Source: Escherichia coli O157:H7 (lineage in GTDB: Bacteria; Pseudomonadota; Gammaproteobacteria; Enterobacterales; Enterobacteriaceae). Taken from it: DNA of 64,000 nucleotides. The translations under genes and the position numbers were made by a program. The DNA lies in the NCBI RefSeq assembly GCF_013167455.1, contig NZ_CP038328.1; one strand, written 5' to 3'. The notes below the pieces were generated by a model. The model did not search any database and was not told where the DNA came from. It worked only from the letters and a program-made list of their open reading frames with translations. Below, piece after piece: positions 17,981-35,557 of this stretch (positions are counted from its first letter, which is position 1; each line of letters begins with the position of its first letter).

Positions 17981-19090
17981 ATGAACGAACAATCCCAGGC
18001 CAAATCACCAGAAGCCTTGCGCGCAATGGTCGCCGGGACACTGGCCAATTTTCAGCACCCAACCCTGAAGCATAACCTCACCACGCTGAAAGCGTTGCAC
18101 CATGTCGCCTGGATGGACGACACGTTGCATGTGGAACTGGTTATGCCATTCGTCTGGCATAGCGCGTTTGAAGAGTTAAAAGAGCAATGTAGCGCCGAAC
18201 TGCTGCGTATCACCGGGGCGAAAGCTATCGACTGGAAACTGTCGCACAATATCGCCACCTTAAAACGCGTGAAGAATCAGCCGGGTATTAATGGCGTGAA
18301 GAACATCATTGCGGTCAGTTCCGGTAAAGGCGGCGTGGGTAAATCCTCCACGGCGGTAAACCTGGCGCTGGCACTGGCGGCGGAAGGGGCGAAAGTCGGC
18401 ATTCTGGACGCCGATATCTACGGCCCATCAATTCCCACCATGCTGGGCGCAGAAAATCAGCGTCCAACTTCGCCGGACGGTACCCATATGGCACCGATTA
18501 TGTCTCATGGCCTGGCAACCAATTCAATTGGTTATCTGGTCACTGACGACAATGCGATGGTGTGGCGTGGACCGATGGCGAGCAAGGCGTTAATGCAGAT
18601 GTTGCAGGAAACCTTGTGGCCGGATCTCGACTATCTGGTGCTTGATATGCCGCCAGGCACCGGTGACATTCAATTGACGCTGGCGCAAAACATTCCAGTA
18701 ACTGGTGCAGTCGTGGTCACCACCCCGCAGGACATCGCGTTGATCGATGCGAAAAAAGGCATTGTGATGTTCGAGAAAGTCGAGGTTCCGGTGCTCGGTA
18801 TTGTCGAGAACATGAGTGTGCATATTTGCAGTAACTGTGGTCACCATGAACCGATTTTCGGTACCGGTGGTGCAGAGAAACTGGCTGAAAAATACCATAC
18901 ACAGCTGCTGGGGCAGATGCCGTTACACATCTCCTTACGTGAGGATCTCGATAAAGGCACGCCAACGGTTATCAGCCGTCCGGAGAGCGAATTTACCGCT
19001 ATCTACCGCCAGCTGGCTGACCGCGTTGCAGCTCAGCTCTACTGGCAGGGTGAAGTCATTCCAGGCGAGATTTCCTTCCGCGCGGTCTAA
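17981..19090 (+). CDS. mrp: Fe-S cluster carrier ATPase Mrp/ApbC
   Basis: Start MNEQSQAKSPE after SD aaggag; P-loop SGKGGVGKSS; CxxC motif (CSNCGH); 369 aa; divergent from metG. Confidence 0.9.
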   Translation: MNEQSQAKSPEALRAMVAGTLANFQHPTLKHNLTTLKALHHVAWMDDTLHVELVMPFVWHSAFEELKEQCSAELLRITGAKAIDWKLSHNIATLKRVKNQPGINGVKNIIAVSSGKGGVGKSSTAVNLALALAAEGAKVGILDADIYGPSIPTMLGAENQRPTSPDGTHMAPIMSHGLATNSIGYLVTDDNAMVWRGPMASKALMQMLQETLWPDLDYLVLDMPPGTGDIQLTLAQNIPVTGAVVVTTPQDIALIDAKKGIVMFEKVEVPVLGIVENMSVHICSNCGHHEPIFGTGGAEKLAEKYHTQLLGQMPLHISLREDLDKGTPTVISRPESEFTAIYRQLADRVAAQLYWQGEVIPGEISFRAV

Positions 19091-19120
19091 CGCCTATTAA
19101 CCATTCTGGTTATTCTTCAT

Positions 19121-19161
19121 ACACCGCAGAGATGTTATATTGATGCGGTGTATTTGTTTTT
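19121..19161 (+). terminator. Intrinsic terminator downstream of mrp
   Basis: Stem acaccgca(19121-19128)/tgcggtgt(19144-19151) followed by T-run 19153-19161. Confidence 0.6.
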
Positions 19162-19351
19162 GCCGCATTAATGAACACTTATTTAATACTGCGAATATTC
19201 AGTGGATCTTAGTCCGAAACTGTACAAAGGCGATTGATTGTGCAACCACTGTCTCTTTATCATCCCTCGTGGCTGTGTAGCGGATGTACAGCTATAGTGT
19301 GTTATGCACTCAATCTACCCGGCATAACCTTTACTACAGGGATAACGTTCA

Positions 19352-19633
19352 ATGAATAAGTATTGGTTGTCAGGAGCTGTTTTTCTTGCTTATGGACTAG
19401 CATCACCCGCGTTCTCTTCTGATACTACAACATTAACCATCAATGGCAGAATTAGTTCCCCTACATGCAGTATGGATGTTGTTAATAATCATCTTCAGCA
19501 ACGTTGTGGGCAGTTGTTACAACGAGTTGAAACCAACTATCGTGCTTCTTCTACTGCAAAAGGCGTTACGACAGAAGTGGTAGCTGTGGGTAATAACGAC
19601 AAACGCAAAATCGTGTTAAATCGCTACGATTAA
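19352..19633 (+). CDS. yehE: YehE, small secreted protein upstream of the yeh fimbrial operon
   Basis: 93-aa ORF with signal peptide MNKYWLSGAVFLAYGLASPAFS; position between mrp and yehD. Confidence 0.7.
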   Translation: MNKYWLSGAVFLAYGLASPAFSSDTTTLTINGRISSPTCSMDVVNNHLQQRCGQLLQRVETNYRASSTAKGVTTEVVAVGNNDKRKIVLNRYD

Positions 19634-19924
19634 TTTGCCAACACCGTTTTAAGCATATTTAAAAAGCCAAAATCATTCCTATGAATGATTTCGGCTTTTT
19701 TATTCATCCCATAAATGTTATTTACGGTAATTTACGGTAATTAATCAGTTTCAAAAATGTTTGTTATAGCGAATTATTTGTTGTATTTATATTGCATTAG
19801 TTAATTTGTTTTAAATCAACAAAACAATATGTTTACATTGCGGCAACCTTTTTGATGTGAGAAATTTGTTTCCAAGAGATACAGACTCTTAACAAAACAA
19901 AATAAACTTATTAAGGAATGCATC

Positions 19925-20467
19925 ATGAAACATTCAATTATTGCTGTCGCTGTCTTATCTTCTGTATTTATGAGTGCTGGTATTTTCGCTGCTGAAGTAG
20001 ATACCGGAACTTTAACCATTAAAGGTAATATTGCAGAATCACCATGTACATTTGTCGCTGGCGGTGATTCAGTCAGTATTAATATGCCGACTGTACCCAC
20101 CACTGTATTTGATGGTAAAGCGAAATATTCAACTTATGATGGCGCGGTTGGTGTAACCAGCAGTATGCTGAAAATTACTTGTCCGAAGACTATTGATGGC
20201 GTAAAACTTTCGTTGATCACCAACGAGAAAATTCTTGGTAATGATAAGGCAATATCCAGTAGTAATGACACAGTTGGATACTATCTCTATTTGGGAGATA
20301 GCAGTGACGTACTGGATATTTCCGCACCATTTAATATTGAAAGTTATAAAACTGCTGATGGACAATATGCAATACCGTTTAAGGCAAAATATCTGAAGTT
20401 GACTGACAGTGGTGTTGCATCTGGTACAGTTAACTCTTCATTGGTTATGCGTGTTGCCCAGGATTAA
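19925..20467 (+). CDS. yehD: Fimbrial major subunit YehD
   Basis: 180-aa ORF, signal peptide ending FA|AEV, type-1-fimbrial-subunit-like; first gene of a chaperone-usher cluster; SD aaggaa. Confidence 0.85.
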   Translation: MKHSIIAVAVLSSVFMSAGIFAAEVDTGTLTIKGNIAESPCTFVAGGDSVSINMPTVPTTVFDGKAKYSTYDGAVGVTSSMLKITCPKTIDGVKLSLITNEKILGNDKAISSSNDTVGYYLYLGDSSDVLDISAPFNIESYKTADGQYAIPFKAKYLKLTDSGVASGTVNSSLVMRVAQD

Positions 20468-20507
20468 ATATTTAAAATAATCATCTTGTTTTTTCAGTAA
20501 GTTAAAA

Positions 20508-20531
20508 TGGCCGCCATATTCATGGCGGCCA
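20508..20531 (+). promoter_or_regulatory. Perfect 10-bp-stem hairpin between yehD and yehC (no U-run)
   Basis: tggccgccat / attc / atggcggcca; position typical of the stem-loops that set subunit-to-assembly-gene stoichiometry in fimbrial operons. Confidence 0.4.
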
Positions 20532-20554
20532 GCATAAATATAAGAGGCATTAAG

Positions 20555-21229
20555 ATGAAAGGGTTATTATCTTTACTCATCTCTTCTATGATATTCCCCG
20601 TGCATGCCGGAATGGTTATTTTCGGGACCCGTATCATTTACCCGGCAGAGCAGAAAGAGGTCATGGTACAACTGATGAATCAGGGAAACCGCTCTTCGCT
20701 GATGCAGGCGTGGATTGATGATGGCGACACGTCTCTGCCGCCAGAAAAGATTCAGGTTCCTTTCATGTTAACGCCACCAGTAGTGAAAGTAGCGGCCAAT
20801 TCTGGGCAACAAATAAAAATTAAAATCATGCCTAATAAATTACCCAGTAATAAGGAAAGTATTTTTTATCTTAATGTTCTGGATATTCCACCGAATAGCC
20901 CAGAAGATGAAGGAAAGAATGCGTTAAAATTTGCCATGCAAAACAGAATCAAGTTGTTTTACCGACCTGCTGGTATTGCTCCGGTAAATAAAACGACTTT
21001 TAAAAAATTACGAGTGAGTCGTAGCGGTAATAACGTAGTCATAAAAAATGACTCGCCAAATTGGGTAACGATTTCTGATGTTAAGGCTAATAACGTCAAA
21101 GTGAATTATGAAACAATCATGATTGCACCACAAGAAAGTCAGAATGTTAGTGAAAAAAATAATAATGCGAATGGCTGGCAACTGACCATTATCGATGATC
21201 ACGGCAACTATATTAGTGACAAAATTTAA
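20555..21229 (+). CDS. yehC: Periplasmic fimbrial chaperone YehC
   Basis: Start MKGLLSLLISSMIFPVHA after SD aagagg; an upstream in-frame ATG at 20507 would sit inside the hairpin. PapD-like chaperone. Confidence 0.8.
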   Translation: MKGLLSLLISSMIFPVHAGMVIFGTRIIYPAEQKEVMVQLMNQGNRSSLMQAWIDDGDTSLPPEKIQVPFMLTPPVVKVAANSGQQIKIKIMPNKLPSNKESIFYLNVLDIPPNSPEDEGKNALKFAMQNRIKLFYRPAGIAPVNKTTFKKLRVSRSGNNVVIKNDSPNWVTISDVKANNVKVNYETIMIAPQESQNVSEKNNNANGWQLTIIDDHGNYISDKI

Positions 21230-21244
21230 TTGCAGGAGCTGCCT

Positions 21245-23725
21245 ATGTTGAGAATGACCCCGCTTGCATCAGCAATAGTCGCGTTATTGCTCGGCATTGA
21301 AGCACATGCAGCAGAAGAAACCTTTGACACCCATTTTATGATGGGAGGAATGAAAGGTGAGCAAGTAACAAATTTGCGTCTTGATGATAATCAGCCTTTA
21401 CCTGGGCAGTACGACATTGATATTTATGTCAATAAACAATGGCGTGGAAAATATGAGATTATCGTCAAAGATAACCCACATGAAACTTGCCTGACGCGTG
21501 AAATTGTAAAGCGGTTAGGTATAAATAGCGATAATTTTGCACGCGAAAATCAGTGTTTAACATTTGAGCAACTTGTTCAGGGCGGAAGCTACTCCTGGGA
21601 TATTGGGATTTTTCGTTTGGATCTCGCTGTTCCGCAAGCCTGGGTTGAAGAGCTGGAAAATGGTTACGTTCCGCCAGAAAACTGGGAGCGGGGAATCAAT
21701 GCGTTTTATACGTCTTATTACGTAAGTCAGTATTACAGTGACTATAAAGCCTCGGGCAATAGTAAGAGCACTTATGTGCGTTTTAACAGTGGGCTAAATT
21801 TGCTGGGATGGCAGCTGCATTCAGATGCCAGTTTTAGCAAAACGGATAATAATCCTGGTGAGTGGAAAAGCAACACGCTGTATCTGGAGCATGGATTTTC
21901 TCAAATTCTCGGTACGCTGCGTATTGGTGATATGTACACCTCAGCCGATATATTTGATTCCGTTCGCTTCACCGGGGTTCGGTTATTTCGTGATATGCAG
22001 ATGTTGCCAAACTCGAAGCAAAATTTTACCCCACGGGTACAGGGGATTGCCCAGAGTAACGCGTTGGTAACTATTGAACAGAACGGTTTTGTCGTTTATC
22101 AGAAAGAGGTTCCACCAGGTCCGTTTTCGATTAGTGATTTGCAGTTAGCGGGCGGAGGGGCGGATCTTGATGTTAGTGTTAAGGAAGCCGATGGTTCTGT
22201 GACTACGTATCTGGTGCCTTATGCGGCAGTACCTAATATGCTGCAACCTGGTGTATCAAAATATGATTTTGCGGCAGGCCGTAGTCATATTGAAGGTGCG
22301 AGCAAGCAAAGTGATTTTGTCCAGGCGGGTTATCAGTATGGTTTTAATAATTTATTGACGCTGTATGGCGGCACGATGGTTGCTAATAATTACTATGCCT
22401 TTACCCTCGGAACAGGTTGGAACACGCGTATTGGCGCAATTTCAGTCGATGCAACTAAATCGCACAGTAAGCAAGACAATGGTGATGTGTTTGACGGACA
22501 AAGTTATCAAATTGCCTATAACAAATTTTTGAGCCAAACATCAACACGTTTTGGTCTGGCGGCCTGGCGTTATTCGTCGCGTGATTACCGCACATTTAAC
22601 GATTATGTGTGGGCAAATAATAAAGATAATTATCGTCGTGATAAAAACGATGTCTATGATATTGCCGATTATTACCAGAATGATTTTGGTCGCAAAAATA
22701 GCTTTTCCGCCAATATGAGTCAGTCATTGCCAGAAGGCTGGGGATCTGTGTCATTAAGTACTTTATGGCGTGATTACTGGGGGCGAAGCGGCAGTAGTAA
22801 AGATTATCAACTGAGTTATTCCAATAACTGGCGGCGGATAAGCTATACCCTCGCGGCAAGCCAGGCGTATGACGAGAACCACGCCGAAGAGAAACGCTTT
22901 AATATTTTTATATCGATTCCCTTTGACTGGGGCGATGACGTTACGACGCCGCGACGGCAAATATATATGTCTAACTCAACGACCTTTGATGATCAGGGTT
23001 TTGCTTCAAACAATACCGGATTATCGGGAACCGTTGGGAACCGCGATCAGTTTAACTATGGTATCAACTTGAGCCATCAACATCAGGGAAATGAAACGAC
23101 AGCTGGGGCCAATTTGACCTGGACCGCACCGGCCGCAACAGTGAATGGCAGCTATAGTCAGTCGAGTACTTATCGACAGGTCGGAGCCAGTGTTTCAGGG
23201 GGACTGGTTGCCTGGTCTGGTGGCGTTAATCTGGCGAACCGTCTTTCCGAAACGTTTGCTGTGATGCATGCGCCGGGAATCAAAGATGCTTATGTCAATG
23301 GGCAAAAATATCGTACAACAAACTGTAATGGTGTGGTGGTGTACGACGGACTGACACCTTATCGGGAAAATCACCTGATGATGGATGTGTCGCAAAGCGA
23401 TAGCGAAACAGAATTACGCGGGAACCGTAAAATGACCGCCCCTTATCGCGGCGCGGTCGTTCTGGTTGATTTTGATACCGATCAGCGTAAGCCCTGGTTT
23501 ATAAAAGCATTAAGATCCGATGGACAGCCATTAACGTTTGGTTATGAAGTCAATGATATGCATGGTCATAACATTGGTGTTGTCGGCCAGGGCAGTCAGA
23601 TATTTATTCGCACCAATGAAATACCGCCAGCGGTTAATGTGGCAATTGATAAGCAACAAGGGCTTTCATGCACAATCACCTTCGGTAAAGAGATTGATGA
23701 AAGTAAAAATTATATCTGTCGGTGA
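21245..23725 (+). CDS. yehB: Outer-membrane fimbrial usher YehB
   Basis: Start MLRMTPLASAIVALLLGIEAHA (SD caggag); 826 aa. Confidence 0.85.
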   Translation: MLRMTPLASAIVALLLGIEAHAAEETFDTHFMMGGMKGEQVTNLRLDDNQPLPGQYDIDIYVNKQWRGKYEIIVKDNPHETCLTREIVKRLGINSDNFARENQCLTFEQLVQGGSYSWDIGIFRLDLAVPQAWVEELENGYVPPENWERGINAFYTSYYVSQYYSDYKASGNSKSTYVRFNSGLNLLGWQLHSDASFSKTDNNPGEWKSNTLYLEHGFSQILGTLRIGDMYTSADIFDSVRFTGVRLFRDMQMLPNSKQNFTPRVQGIAQSNALVTIEQNGFVVYQKEVPPGPFSISDLQLAGGGADLDVSVKEADGSVTTYLVPYAAVPNMLQPGVSKYDFAAGRSHIEGASKQSDFVQAGYQYGFNNLLTLYGGTMVANNYYAFTLGTGWNTRIGAISVDATKSHSKQDNGDVFDGQSYQIAYNKFLSQTSTRFGLAAWRYSSRDYRTFNDYVWANNKDNYRRDKNDVYDIADYYQNDFGRKNSFSANMSQSLPEGWGSVSLSTLWRDYWGRSGSSKDYQLSYSNNWRRISYTLAASQAYDENHAEEKRFNIFISIPFDWGDDVTTPRRQIYMSNSTTFDDQGFASNNTGLSGTVGNRDQFNYGINLSHQHQGNETTAGANLTWTAPAATVNGSYSQSSTYRQVGASVSGGLVAWSGGVNLANRLSETFAVMHAPGIKDAYVNGQKYRTTNCNGVVVYDGLTPYRENHLMMDVSQSDSETELRGNRKMTAPYRGAVVLVDFDTDQRKPWFIKALRSDGQPLTFGYEVNDMHGHNIGVVGQGSQIFIRTNEIPPAVNVAIDKQQGLSCTITFGKEIDESKNYICR

Positions 23726-23735
23726 GAGGTGAAAT

Positions 23736-24770
23736 ATGATGTTCAGAAATAGAATATTACTAATATTTATATTGTGGGCTAATTTTACCTGGGCTGGGTG
23801 TCGTACTACTGCATCATTAAATATTACAGATGGTATTAATGTTGGGGAGATTTTAGCGAATGAAACTTCCTTTAGTAAAAGTGTCGTGTTTACTGGGATA
23901 TCTTGTGATACGAGCACGGATAAAATAGTTTATAAAAATATCCAAAGTGATTGGGTTGAAGTTGGGCCTTTTGGTAATGGCGAAAAATTAAAGGTTAAAA
24001 TAGAGTCTTTAGGTAAAACCAGCGACACAATTGGGAAATCCAGCAATGCGCAGGCAGTATTACCTTATGTGGTTAAAATAGCCAGAGGCACACCTGATTT
24101 TACTGGAGAAAGAAAATCTACCTGGTTTATTTCAGATACCGTGATTGCAAATATTGGCGGTGAGTCATCGTCATCCATCGATTTTTGGTTGGGTATTTGT
24201 AAGGCATTGAAGTTTAACTGGTGTGTGAATTATCTCACCAGCAAACTGGCGGGGGATACATTTACGCTTGGGTTAAATATTTCCTATTATCCTAAAAATA
24301 CGACCTGTAAGCCTGAAAACACCGTTATAAAAGTAGATGATATCGCCTTGTTCCAGCTCAGAAATCAGGGAAAGATTGCGGCGAACAGTAAGGAAGGAAC
24401 AATTACGTTGAAATGTGATAATCTTTTCGGCGACAAAAAACAAGCATCGCGGAATATGGTTGTATATCTTTCTAGCAGTGACTTAGTTAAAGGAAGTAAT
24501 ACTATTTTGCGTGGTAAAACAGATAATGGTGTAGGGTTTGTGTTGGATCTAACAGAACCACCAAAAGGGACTGAGGCTGCCATTAAAATTTCGGCCAACG
24601 GCGATCAGGGCGCGGCGACATCATTATGGAAAACAGATAAACCAGGAGTTTCATTAAATAGCAACATTATTAATATACCAGTCATGGCCAGTTACTATGT
24701 ATATGATGAAAAAAAAGTTAAATCTGGCGCACTGGAAGCAACCGCATTAATCAACGTGAAATACGATTAA
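23736..24770 (+). CDS. yehA: Fimbrial adhesin-like protein YehA
   Basis: 344-aa ORF with signal peptide, last gene of the cluster. Confidence 0.8.
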   Translation: MMFRNRILLIFILWANFTWAGCRTTASLNITDGINVGEILANETSFSKSVVFTGISCDTSTDKIVYKNIQSDWVEVGPFGNGEKLKVKIESLGKTSDTIGKSSNAQAVLPYVVKIARGTPDFTGERKSTWFISDTVIANIGGESSSSIDFWLGICKALKFNWCVNYLTSKLAGDTFTLGLNISYYPKNTTCKPENTVIKVDDIALFQLRNQGKIAANSKEGTITLKCDNLFGDKKQASRNMVVYLSSSDLVKGSNTILRGKTDNGVGFVLDLTEPPKGTEAAIKISANGDQGAATSLWKTDKPGVSLNSNIINIPVMASYYVYDEKKVKSGALEATALINVKYD

Positions 24771-25407: not shown

Positions 25408-26259
<852 letters not shown>

Positions 26260-26296: not shown

Positions 26297-26351
26297 TACT
26301 CCCCCCCAGTACCTGATACTACCCCCCAGTACCTGATACTACCCCCCAGTA
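26297..26351. promoter_or_regulatory. Three tandem RcnR operator-like boxes (TACT-N7-AGTA) at 20-bp spacing
   Basis: Boxes at 26297-26311, 26317-26331 and 26337-26351, each TACT + C-run + AGTA, separated by cctga; matches the published RcnR site TACT-G6-N-AGTA on the other strand. Confidence 0.65.
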
Positions 26352-34283: not shown

Positions 34284-35557
34284 TTAACTTCCCCTTGTGT
34301 CAACGCAATATCGCGATCATCGACCTTGATAGCCGTAATTTCGTTGTCGGATTCGCGGAAAAAGATCATGAACAGCACGGCGATAATGGCAATCATCACC
34401 GCGCCAAAAGTCCACATCCCGGACCAGTTGAAAGTCAGTCCGTTTACCGGTTCCTGATAAGCGAACATCTTTTCCATCATCACACCGCCAAGACGATAGC
34501 CGAGCAAACTGCCGAAGCCCTGGCAGCAGAGCGTGATCAGTCCCTGCGCAGCGGTACGCATATGCACGGGGGCTTTTTTATCGACATAGATGTAAGCGGT
34601 AACGTAGTAAAAATCGTAACTTACGCCGTGCAGCAAAATGCCGAGGAACAGTAACGCGTAGGTGAAATATTCATCCGCACTACCGTAAATAAAGAAGCCA
34701 TAGCGGATCGCAGCGGTGACCAGACCAAGCAATAATACCTTTTTGATACCAAAGCGTTTGGTGAAAAACGGCAATGCCAGCATAAAGAATATTTCAGAGA
34801 ACTGGCCGAGCGTCATCCAGCCGGTGGCGTTTTTCATGCCAACTTCGGTCAGATAACCGTTGGCAAAGATGTAATAGAACGCCAGTGGCATCGCAAACAG
34901 GAATGAACAGAAGAAAAAGACGAGGAAGTTTTTATCGCGCAGCAGGATCAGCGCATCCAGGCCGAGCATGACTTTAATGTCCATTTTGCCGGTGCTTTTT
35001 GGCGGCGTGTCGGGCAGGAAAAACGCAAACACACCGAGCAGAGCAGAACTTCCGGCGGTAATCAGCAGCGGGATGTTAGTCGGTGAGATATCGGCATACC
35101 CCAGCATTTGCGGCAAGAAACCACATGCCAGACCAGAGGCAATCCAGCCGATAGTGCCCATCACACGAATGCGCGGGAAATCACGCTCCACATCCGGCAC
35201 GTTGGCAAAAGCGATGCTGTTAGTCAGCGCAATGGTCGGCATATAGGTTAGCGAGTAGGCCAGCAGTAACGGGAAGAACCCGGCAAAAGTGGTCTGTTGC
35301 GCAGCGAAATACATCAGCGCCGCACCAGTGAACATCAATACCGCCAGCACTTTCTGCGCCGAGAAAAAGCGGTCAGTGATGGAGCCAACCAGAATTGGCG
35401 ACAGGATCGCCGCAATGGCTGTGCAGGCATACGACCAGCCAATTTCTCCGGCACTAAAACCGCTTTTACTTAACCACAGCCACAATGGCACAAACCACGC
35501 GCCCCAGATAAACCATTCAACAAACATCATGAACGACAGCTTTGTTGTTGTTTTCAT
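34280..35557 (-). CDS. yegT: MFS nucleoside transporter YegT
   Basis: 425-aa polytopic membrane protein, NupG/XapB-like. Confidence 0.8.
   Translation of the reverse strand: MKTTTKLSFMMFVEWFIWGAWFVPLWLWLSKSGFSAGEIGWSYACTAIAAILSPILVGSITDRFFSAQKVLAVLMFTGAALMYFAAQQTTFAGFFPLLLAYSLTYMPTIALTNSIAFANVPDVERDFPRIRVMGTIGWIASGLACGFLPQMLGYADISPTNIPLLITAGSSALLGVFAFFLPDTPPKSTGKMDIKVMLGLDALILLRDKNFLVFFFCSFLFAMPLAFYYIFANGYLTEVGMKNATGWMTLGQFSEIFFMLALPFFTKRFGIKKVLLLGLVTAAIRYGFFIYGSADEYFTYALLFLGILLHGVSYDFYYVTAYIYVDKKAPVHMRTAAQGLITLCCQGFGSLLGYRLGGVMMEKMFAYQEPVNGLTFNWSGMWTFGAVMIAIIAVLFMIFFRESDNEITAIKVDDRDIALTQGEVK

Follow-up and report, generated by a model that had tools for sequence, protein, structure and literature searches.

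The spacer upstream of the fimbrial gene yehD (Z3276) in Escherichia coli O157:H7, a regulatory region carrying a low-copy 10-bp repeat of variable length

The TAAA tract of nadA in N. meningitidis and the TA tract of hifA/hifB in H. influenzae tune expression by slippage. In E. coli O157:H7, low-copy VNTR loci serve MLVA typing, and to our knowledge the repeat described here is not part of the published MLVA schemes. Cpx control of pili (pap, curli and bfp) is an established theme as well, and envelope stress includes the misfolding of pilus subunits.

In strain K-12, yehDCBA was described as a cryptic chaperone-usher operon silenced by H-NS (Korea et al. 2010, as summarized in PMC5797941), which belongs to the H-NS regulon and could be de-repressed by SlyA (PMC5797941). 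The yehD/yehE spacer of K-12 figures among the 'promoter islands' bound by H-NS (PMC3661553), and the K-12 operon lies within a static extended protein-occupancy domain (PMC12266141). The Z3276-Z3279 operon has a share in both the LEE expression and the pathogenicity of EHEC (PMC11287998, PMC6060243), and Z3276 is widely used as a PCR marker for O157:H7. The corresponding pilus, Yhl, is almost confined to phylogroup E (PMC12778044). This control region has already been studied, and what is new here is a repeat varying from one to three copies, together with a candidate CpxR site.

The window, that is, the whole stretch of DNA which was analysed, comprises 64,000 nucleotides of E. coli O157:H7, and its positions 19634-19924 form the yehE-yehD (Z3276) intergenic spacer. 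This spacer of 291 bp was 100% identical to that of O157:H7 strain ECP19-598 and 99.7% identical to that of EDL933. The local gene order was metG (minus strand), apbC/mrp (plus strand), yehE, fimbrial subunit, chaperone, usher and a 344-aa adhesin, and the features of the spacer and its two flanking genes are collected in Table 1. The tip adhesin of the operon (23736-24770) matched the receptor-binding domain of YhlD from strain Sakai (PDB 8V9V, E=2e-111) and gave no match to PDB 9N4G, so the pilus is the one called 'Yhl' (Yeh-like) in the naming of PMC12778044.

Table 1. Features of the yehE-yehD spacer and its flanking genes (positions in the window)
Feature	Position	Strand	Basis or remark
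yehE (DUF2574, 93 aa), gene 5' of the spacer	19352..19633	+	ORF; Pfam DUF2574 E=1e-41; RefSeq in EDL933 and K-12
TTAAGCA, single copy in the window	19649..19655	+	alignments
Intrinsic terminator of yehE, hairpin with 18-bp arms and T-run	19661..19706	+	arms 19661-19678 / 19683-19700; inverted repeat, RNA fold
Perfect 10-bp tandem repeat, ATTTACGGTA x2.3	19720..19742	+	Tandem Repeats Finder; copy number strain-variable
Candidate CpxR site, GTAAATTACCGTAAA, exact GTAAA-N5-GTAAA	19721..19735	-	consensus and PSSM match
Conserved regulatory core (probable promoter and 5'UTR)	19782..19906	+	identity profile, multi-species alignments
FNR-like palindrome, TTGTT-TTAA-ATCAA	19806..19819	.	sequence; conserved in three genera; overlaps ArcA region
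Ortholog of the K-12 ArcA-P direct-repeat region (MG1655 2190321-2190363)	19807..19849	-	40/43 bases identical
Shine-Dalgarno / CsrA-binding GGA motif, AUUAAGGAAUGC	19910..19921	+	just 5' of start codon
yehD = Z3276 = 'yhlA', major fimbrial subunit, operon gene 1	19925..20467	+	ORF; Pfam Fimbrial; RefSeq WP_000682830.1

The GC content of the spacer was 27.1% against 49.9% for the whole window, which made it the GC minimum (0.267) of the 15-28 kb profile, with 27.7% upstream of the conserved core and 25.6% within it. A preliminary description had called the region upstream of yehD strongly AT-rich, which was borne out, and the flanking genes were verified as yehE (DUF2574) and a fimbrial subunit. 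The AT content exceeds the genome average, as at fimbrial promoters of the H-NS type.

A DUF2574 (yehE-like) gene was also observed alongside yeh-like operons in three genera. The one in Citrobacter is co-oriented and adjoins apbC and metG, while the one in Superficieibacter is divergent and found in another genomic context. YehE begins with a stretch that resembles a signal peptide, and this N-terminus has a short, statistically weak likeness to that of YehD (E=0.27). That the linkage is conserved gives a hint that YehE may be part of the fimbrial system.

The spacer is composed of four modules, namely the yehE terminator, a fast-evolving repeat spacer, a core of 125 bp and a Shine-Dalgarno sequence which binds CsrA. 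The first module is a strong intrinsic terminator of yehE. Its hairpin starts 28 bp past the yehE stop codon, is followed by a T-run and folds at -18.2 kcal/mol (z=-7.1); the hairpin in EDL933 reaches -22.4 kcal/mol, and that of the window strain is weaker because of one A.C mismatch in the stem, which also explains why a simple terminator scanner missed it. At about position 19692 in this stem, the window strain carries C, while EDL933 and most O157:H7 genomes carry T. The hairpin can also form on the minus strand, and it was kept across alleles and species with changes on both arms.

Some further variation was observed around the terminator. The TTAAGCA motif is tandemly duplicated (TTAAGCATTAAGCA) in a non-O157 sub-haplotype which includes SCPM7615, 17MR471 and ECCTRSRTH03, and represents a second small length polymorphism. 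In FDAARGOS_943, an IS1A is inserted between yehE and the repeat and the terminator region is replaced (766-1463 of the fetched locus). In LP5-1, an ISApl1 lies directly 5' of the conserved core (1-797 of the fetched locus) and has taken the place of the sequence before it, with only query positions 178-285 still matching. This upstream length variation and the IS insertions near Z3276 could be useful for the design of PCR assays. For coding or structured-RNA genes, only spurious frames of 20-25 aa were found in the spacer, and a search of 19100-20100 against Rfam (E<=1) returned only sub-threshold, unrelated matches (eukaryotic snoRNAs and a miRNA) far below the gathering scores.

The third module, the core, was delimited by an alignment of ten E. 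coli genomes spanning all identity classes and by the identity profile between the O157 and K-12 alleles. The core was 92-98% identical between these two alleles and its flanks 56-85%, and the repeat fell in the least conserved windows of 50 bp (56-58% identity to K-12). Four other Escherichia species, which were found by scanning with a 22-mer of the core and represented by one genome each, had a near-invariant core (E. albertii, E. whittamii, Escherichia sp. E1V33 and Escherichia sp. MOD1-EC7003). The syntenic loci of Citrobacter and Superficieibacter, which were reached through YehD homologues, kept only the core centre TTG(T/C)TTTAAATCAA(C/T)AAAACA...TT(T/C)ACATTG(C/A)G..AAC and the Shine-Dalgarno sequence, and nothing of the repeat region was conserved in these two genera.

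The sense strand of the core showed no structured leader on RNA folding (z=-0.95 and -0.48), and since neither a significant fold nor an Rfam match was obtained, the conservation is best read as that of protein-binding DNA. The core most likely holds the promoter. A sigma-70 consensus scan gave no hit in the intergenic region and one in 19200-20100, where 3.6 would be expected, and the 'promoter island' label of the K-12 spacer was not reproduced for the O157 spacer by this simple scan. The hexamers TATATT (19788) and TTTACA (19833), picked by hand, are speculative candidates. As the core is bounded within a locus which diverges by about 20-45% between alleles, it indicates where the promoter should be sought.

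The core is under strong purifying selection and holds the ArcA-P direct repeats as well as the FNR-like palindrome. This palindrome agrees at nine of ten positions, thus is one base away, with TTGAT-N4-ATCAA, which we take to be the FNR consensus. In K-12, yehD is ChIP-positive for FNR (PMC2690998), a signal that we infer to belong to this palindrome. The sequence of the K-12 ArcA-P site came from an ArcA ChIP-seq study (supplementary file 4 of PMC3798270), in which yehDCBA was 5.4-fold up in an arcA mutant. The fourth module is the Shine-Dalgarno sequence, the published target of CsrA, which in EHEC binds the RNA of the yeh 5'UTR beside the start codon in gel shifts that depend on GG (PMC11287998). 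The only GGA near the start codon is that of the Shine-Dalgarno sequence (19915-19917), and AAGGA was invariant in every alignment, including the E. coli alleles, the other Escherichia, Citrobacter and Superficieibacter. The published ArcA, FNR and CsrA sites are all located outside the repeat, in the conserved core and the Shine-Dalgarno sequence.

The second module, about 75 bp long, is an AT-rich spacer that evolves fast and has the 10-bp repeat in it. Tandem Repeats Finder reported a period of 10, 2.3 copies and 100% match, with the sequence ATTTACGGTAATTTACGGTAATT; with one mismatch tolerated, the array extends back to 19717 and counts about 2.6 copies. The preliminary description had placed a 10-bp unit repeated about 2.7 times at 19725-19751. 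A 10-bp tandem repeat is indeed real, but its position, copy number and sequence have to be corrected: the 27-mer ggtaatttacggtaatttacggtaatt quoted there is absent, the true 27-mer at 19716-19742 being TGTTATTTACGGTAATTTACGGTAATT with two bases different, and the interval was shifted by about 9 bases and ran into non-repeat sequence. When the 291-bp region was simulated 20,000 times with matched composition, 65 runs gave a self-match of at least 13 bases with an offset between 4 and 20; the number expected per 64 kb is 0.03. Because simulations so rarely yield such a match, the repeat is a real duplication instead of an effect of AT-richness. The RNA fold of the repeat was unremarkable (-5.8 kcal/mol, z=-2.0). 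A further ATTTACGGTA at 34681-34690 (minus strand) was considered as a member of a repeat family and was discarded as a chance 10-mer inside an ORF of 425 aa.

Among the 5,426 complete genomes of E. coli, 369 carried the O157-type spacer, one match being on a record labelled as plasmid. Copy number was scored with synthetic queries of 3.3, 1.3 and 2.3 copies, followed by alignment of the fetched sequences. At least nine of the 369 genomes had 3.3 copies (TB21-1, HB6, UTME-1, RIMD 0509939, 33F4/32F4/33E, 17MR471 and FDAARGOS_943), a single genome, ATCC 43889, had 1.3 copies, and the remaining O157-type genomes, including EDL933 and 86-24 and making up about 97% of the 369, had 2.3 copies. The allele with 3.3 copies occurred on the O157 haplotype (TB21-1 and 33F4) as well as on the non-O157 one marked by the 7-bp TTAAGCA duplication (17MR471 and FDAARGOS_943), so the repeat was expanded at least twice. 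The earlier suggestion that the element is prone to slippage, to be checked by comparing repeat number between strains, was thus substantiated by 1.3, 2.3 and 3.3 copies on at least two haplotypes. For 4.3 copies, no span of 143 bp was present in the records, and the corresponding BLAST query was uninformative, joining two overlapping pieces of genomes with 2.3 copies. Outside E. coli, 1.3 copies were found in E. whittamii and 2.3 copies in Escherichia sp. E1V33.

In the remaining E. coli alleles, a degenerate version of the same length is present, which in K-12 is ATTTACATAAATCTACATTAATT. Among the sampled rows of the K-12-type allele (3,107 genomes), no 10-bp indel was detected and the spans were 123-125 bp only; this control included at most 37 genomes under 95% identity. 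The lack of indels in the degenerate K-12 version is the expected outcome if slippage requires perfect repeat identity.

As to its origin, the repeat is the perfect, allele-specific form of a direct repeat, TTTAC-N5-TTTAC, which is older and imperfect. Perfection was most likely attained when the array shrank to a single unit that was then duplicated anew, which is the simplest course because the two units share one and the same difference from K-12 (ACGG versus ACAT). Replication slippage still alters the repeat at a low rate, as the natural alleles of 1.3, 2.3 and 3.3 copies indicate.

The wider locus has a history of its own. The apbC gene is about 100% identical to that of K-12, and the drop in identity begins at the apbC-yehE spacer; within apbC, a block of 86-94% identity to K-12 at 18208-18480 looks like a small recombination mosaic. 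The O55:H7 lineage is regarded as the ancestor of O157:H7, and at this locus O55:H7 strain RM12579 has a yeh allele of the K-12 type, in which yehC and yehB bear a pseudogene annotation. The spacer of Escherichia sp. E1V33 is almost identical to the O157 spacer. Comparison over 19200-21400 of the window suggests that recombination replaced the allele in the lineage of O157:H7, in which case the 'Yhl' pilus would be an allele of the yeh locus, not a separate locus.

Taken together, we consider it rather probable that the region is a regulatory spacer with a low-copy length polymorphism which has little or only a modulatory effect on yehD and is no on/off switch. The repeat itself is probably neutral or at most modulatory. 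Since the operator sites follow 65-85 bp further downstream, the spacing of the promoter hexamers would be unaffected by its copy number. Any effect would most plausibly come about through the number of in-phase GTAAA pentamers available to a CpxR-type regulator, or through an altered H-NS-bound tract. As it stands, little changes with respect to the known picture, which is that of a leader silenced by H-NS (in K-12) and controlled by ArcA, FNR and CsrA, with a minor polymorphism added. The natural variants ATCC 43889 (1.3 copies), EDL933 and 86-24 (2.3 copies) and TB21-1 and RIMD 0509939 (3.3 copies) allow a quick expression test.

It is possible, if on balance doubtful, that the repeat is a working operator of CpxR~P or of another OmpR-family regulator, by which the Yhl fimbriae would be tied to envelope stress. 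The candidate site is the sole exact match in 64 kb to GTAAA-N5-GTAAA, the CpxR consensus as quoted in PMC9600279, with 0.13 matches expected; the match was however noticed post hoc, after several regulators had been considered. With a PSSM built from 41 published sites (Table S1 of PMC9600279), it scored 17.1 bits, which was rank 1 in 64 kb, exceeded 33 of the 41 known sites and was attained by 13 of 5,000 simulated regions of matched composition, and the first 12 of its 15 bases are those of the published degP2 site. Such a score has to be read against more than 10,000 PSSM hits in K-12 and against high-scoring, EMSA-positive sites which may be without regulatory effect (PMC9600279). Neither a link between CpxR and yehD or yeh was found in a literature search, nor are yehD, yehE and yehC contained in the supplements of PMC9600279. 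The literature likewise yielded nothing usable on H-NS at Z3276 or on a transcription start of yehD in O157.

The conservation of the site points in both directions. The exact GTAAA-N5-GTAAA was found in the O157-type allele, in E1V33 and in E. albertii, the last of which keeps both pentamers around a diverged 5-bp spacer (GTAAATTGTTGTAAA, 15.0 bits), and the K-12 version, which like the others precedes the core anchor by 111 bp, still scored 12.1 bits. On the other hand, many E. coli alleles have a degenerate site (0.5-8.3 bits, with 8.3 bits for M217 and 0.5 bits for Eco15 at that position), its surroundings are the least conserved part of the spacer, and E. whittamii, ATCC 43889, Citrobacter and Superficieibacter lack the box. 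Retention of the pentamers, as judged from the alignments, hints that selection may act on them rather than neutral drift.

If CpxR were the regulator, slippage would tune the site, since the variant with 1.3 copies has no box (its score falls to 2.4 bits), that with 2.3 copies has one, and that with 3.3 copies has two overlapping boxes formed by three in-phase pentamers. A slippage-tunable operator of this kind, where copy number would heritably reset the CpxR~P control of the O157:H7-specific Yhl fimbriae, seems improbable to us. If true, natural variants of low, medium and high response would be at hand, e.g. ATCC 43889, EDL933 and TB21-1.

Similarly small is the chance that the repeat is mainly part of an H-NS silencing tract, in which copy number would set the strength of silencing through phased, bendable A/T-rich units that nucleate or extend the filament. 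The GC content of 27% fits this, and the AATTT tracts are in phase because the unit corresponds to one helical turn; yet all 290 bp are equally AT-rich, and 10-20 extra bases would add little. The rotation ACGGTAATTT of the unit agrees with 7 of the 10 positions of what we take to be the H-NS nucleation motif, TCGATAAATT, a likeness which is weak. The K-12 counterpart is bound and silenced by H-NS, whereas in EHEC the native promoter drives detectable expression of the operon (PMC11287998). The silencing by H-NS that had been presumed for the AT-rich region upstream of yehD is backed by published work for the K-12 allele of the same spacer.

Very improbable is a classical contingency locus, in which slipped-strand mispairing would turn the fimbriae on and off, for although a tandem repeat lies 5' of a fimbrial operon and its copy number differs between related strains, it has 2-3 copies of a 10-bp unit (2.3 in the window, instead of a long hypermutable tract), about 97% of genomes share one copy number, and it is placed 65-85 bp from the ArcA/FNR sites, outside the core and any ORF, where neither a reading frame nor the -35/-10 spacing would be altered if the promoter lies in the core. 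Two other kinds of phase switch were discarded as well. A pap-like Dam/Lrp switch was rejected on the absence of GATC from the region. For a fimS-like inversion, only short AT-rich inverted repeats were present, and all alignments listed were single-piece and colinear, with no orientation variants.

Two other repeats were observed in the window, both at rcnA. One is a perfect hexanucleotide repeat, TCGTGG x6.3 (25826-25863), in a minus-strand ORF (25408-26259; Pfam NicO, rcnA), where it falls within the His/Asp-rich stretch (HDHDHDHDHD) of the nickel/cobalt efflux protein RcnA; this tract is likely to vary in length in frame. Another is a 20-bp unit, CCCCCCAGTACCTGATACTA x2.5, at 26302-26351 just 5' of rcnA, with junctions of the form TACT-A-C6-AGTA, which resemble what we take to be the paired operator motif of RcnR (TACT-G6-N-AGTA, on the other strand).

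Compared with known systems, the yeh repeat is like the low-copy VNTRs used in MLVA of O157:H7 in being a short tandem array that varies in copy number from strain to strain, but it is far less diverse, with three alleles of which one is dominant. The TAAA tract of N. meningitidis nadA and the TA tract of H. influenzae hifA/hifB likewise lie 5' of an adhesin or fimbrial gene and vary in copy number; they are composed of many 2-4-bp units, change at high rates, are located at core-promoter or regulator sites and have proven effects, whereas the yeh repeat has 2-3 units of 10 bp, is variant in about 3% of genomes and lies outside the conserved core. With the CpxR boxes of the Cpx regulon (cpxP, degP, ppiA and motA; Table S1 of PMC9600279), the candidate site shares the exact consensus at 17.1 bits, but it was made by tandem duplication and is allele-specific and copy-variable. 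It lies upstream of a pilus operon, and pilus operons are among the known targets of Cpx control.

The closest relative is the yehDCBA operon of K-12, which occupies the same locus (apbC-yehE-yehD) with the same architecture and AT-richness. The yehE, spacer, yehD and yehC of the O157 or 'Yhl' type are only 56-85% identical to their K-12 counterparts, and the perfect repeat of O157:H7 is replaced in K-12 by the degenerate ATTTACATAAATCTACATTAATT, while the terminator and the core, including the ArcA-P site, are shared by both at 92-98% identity.
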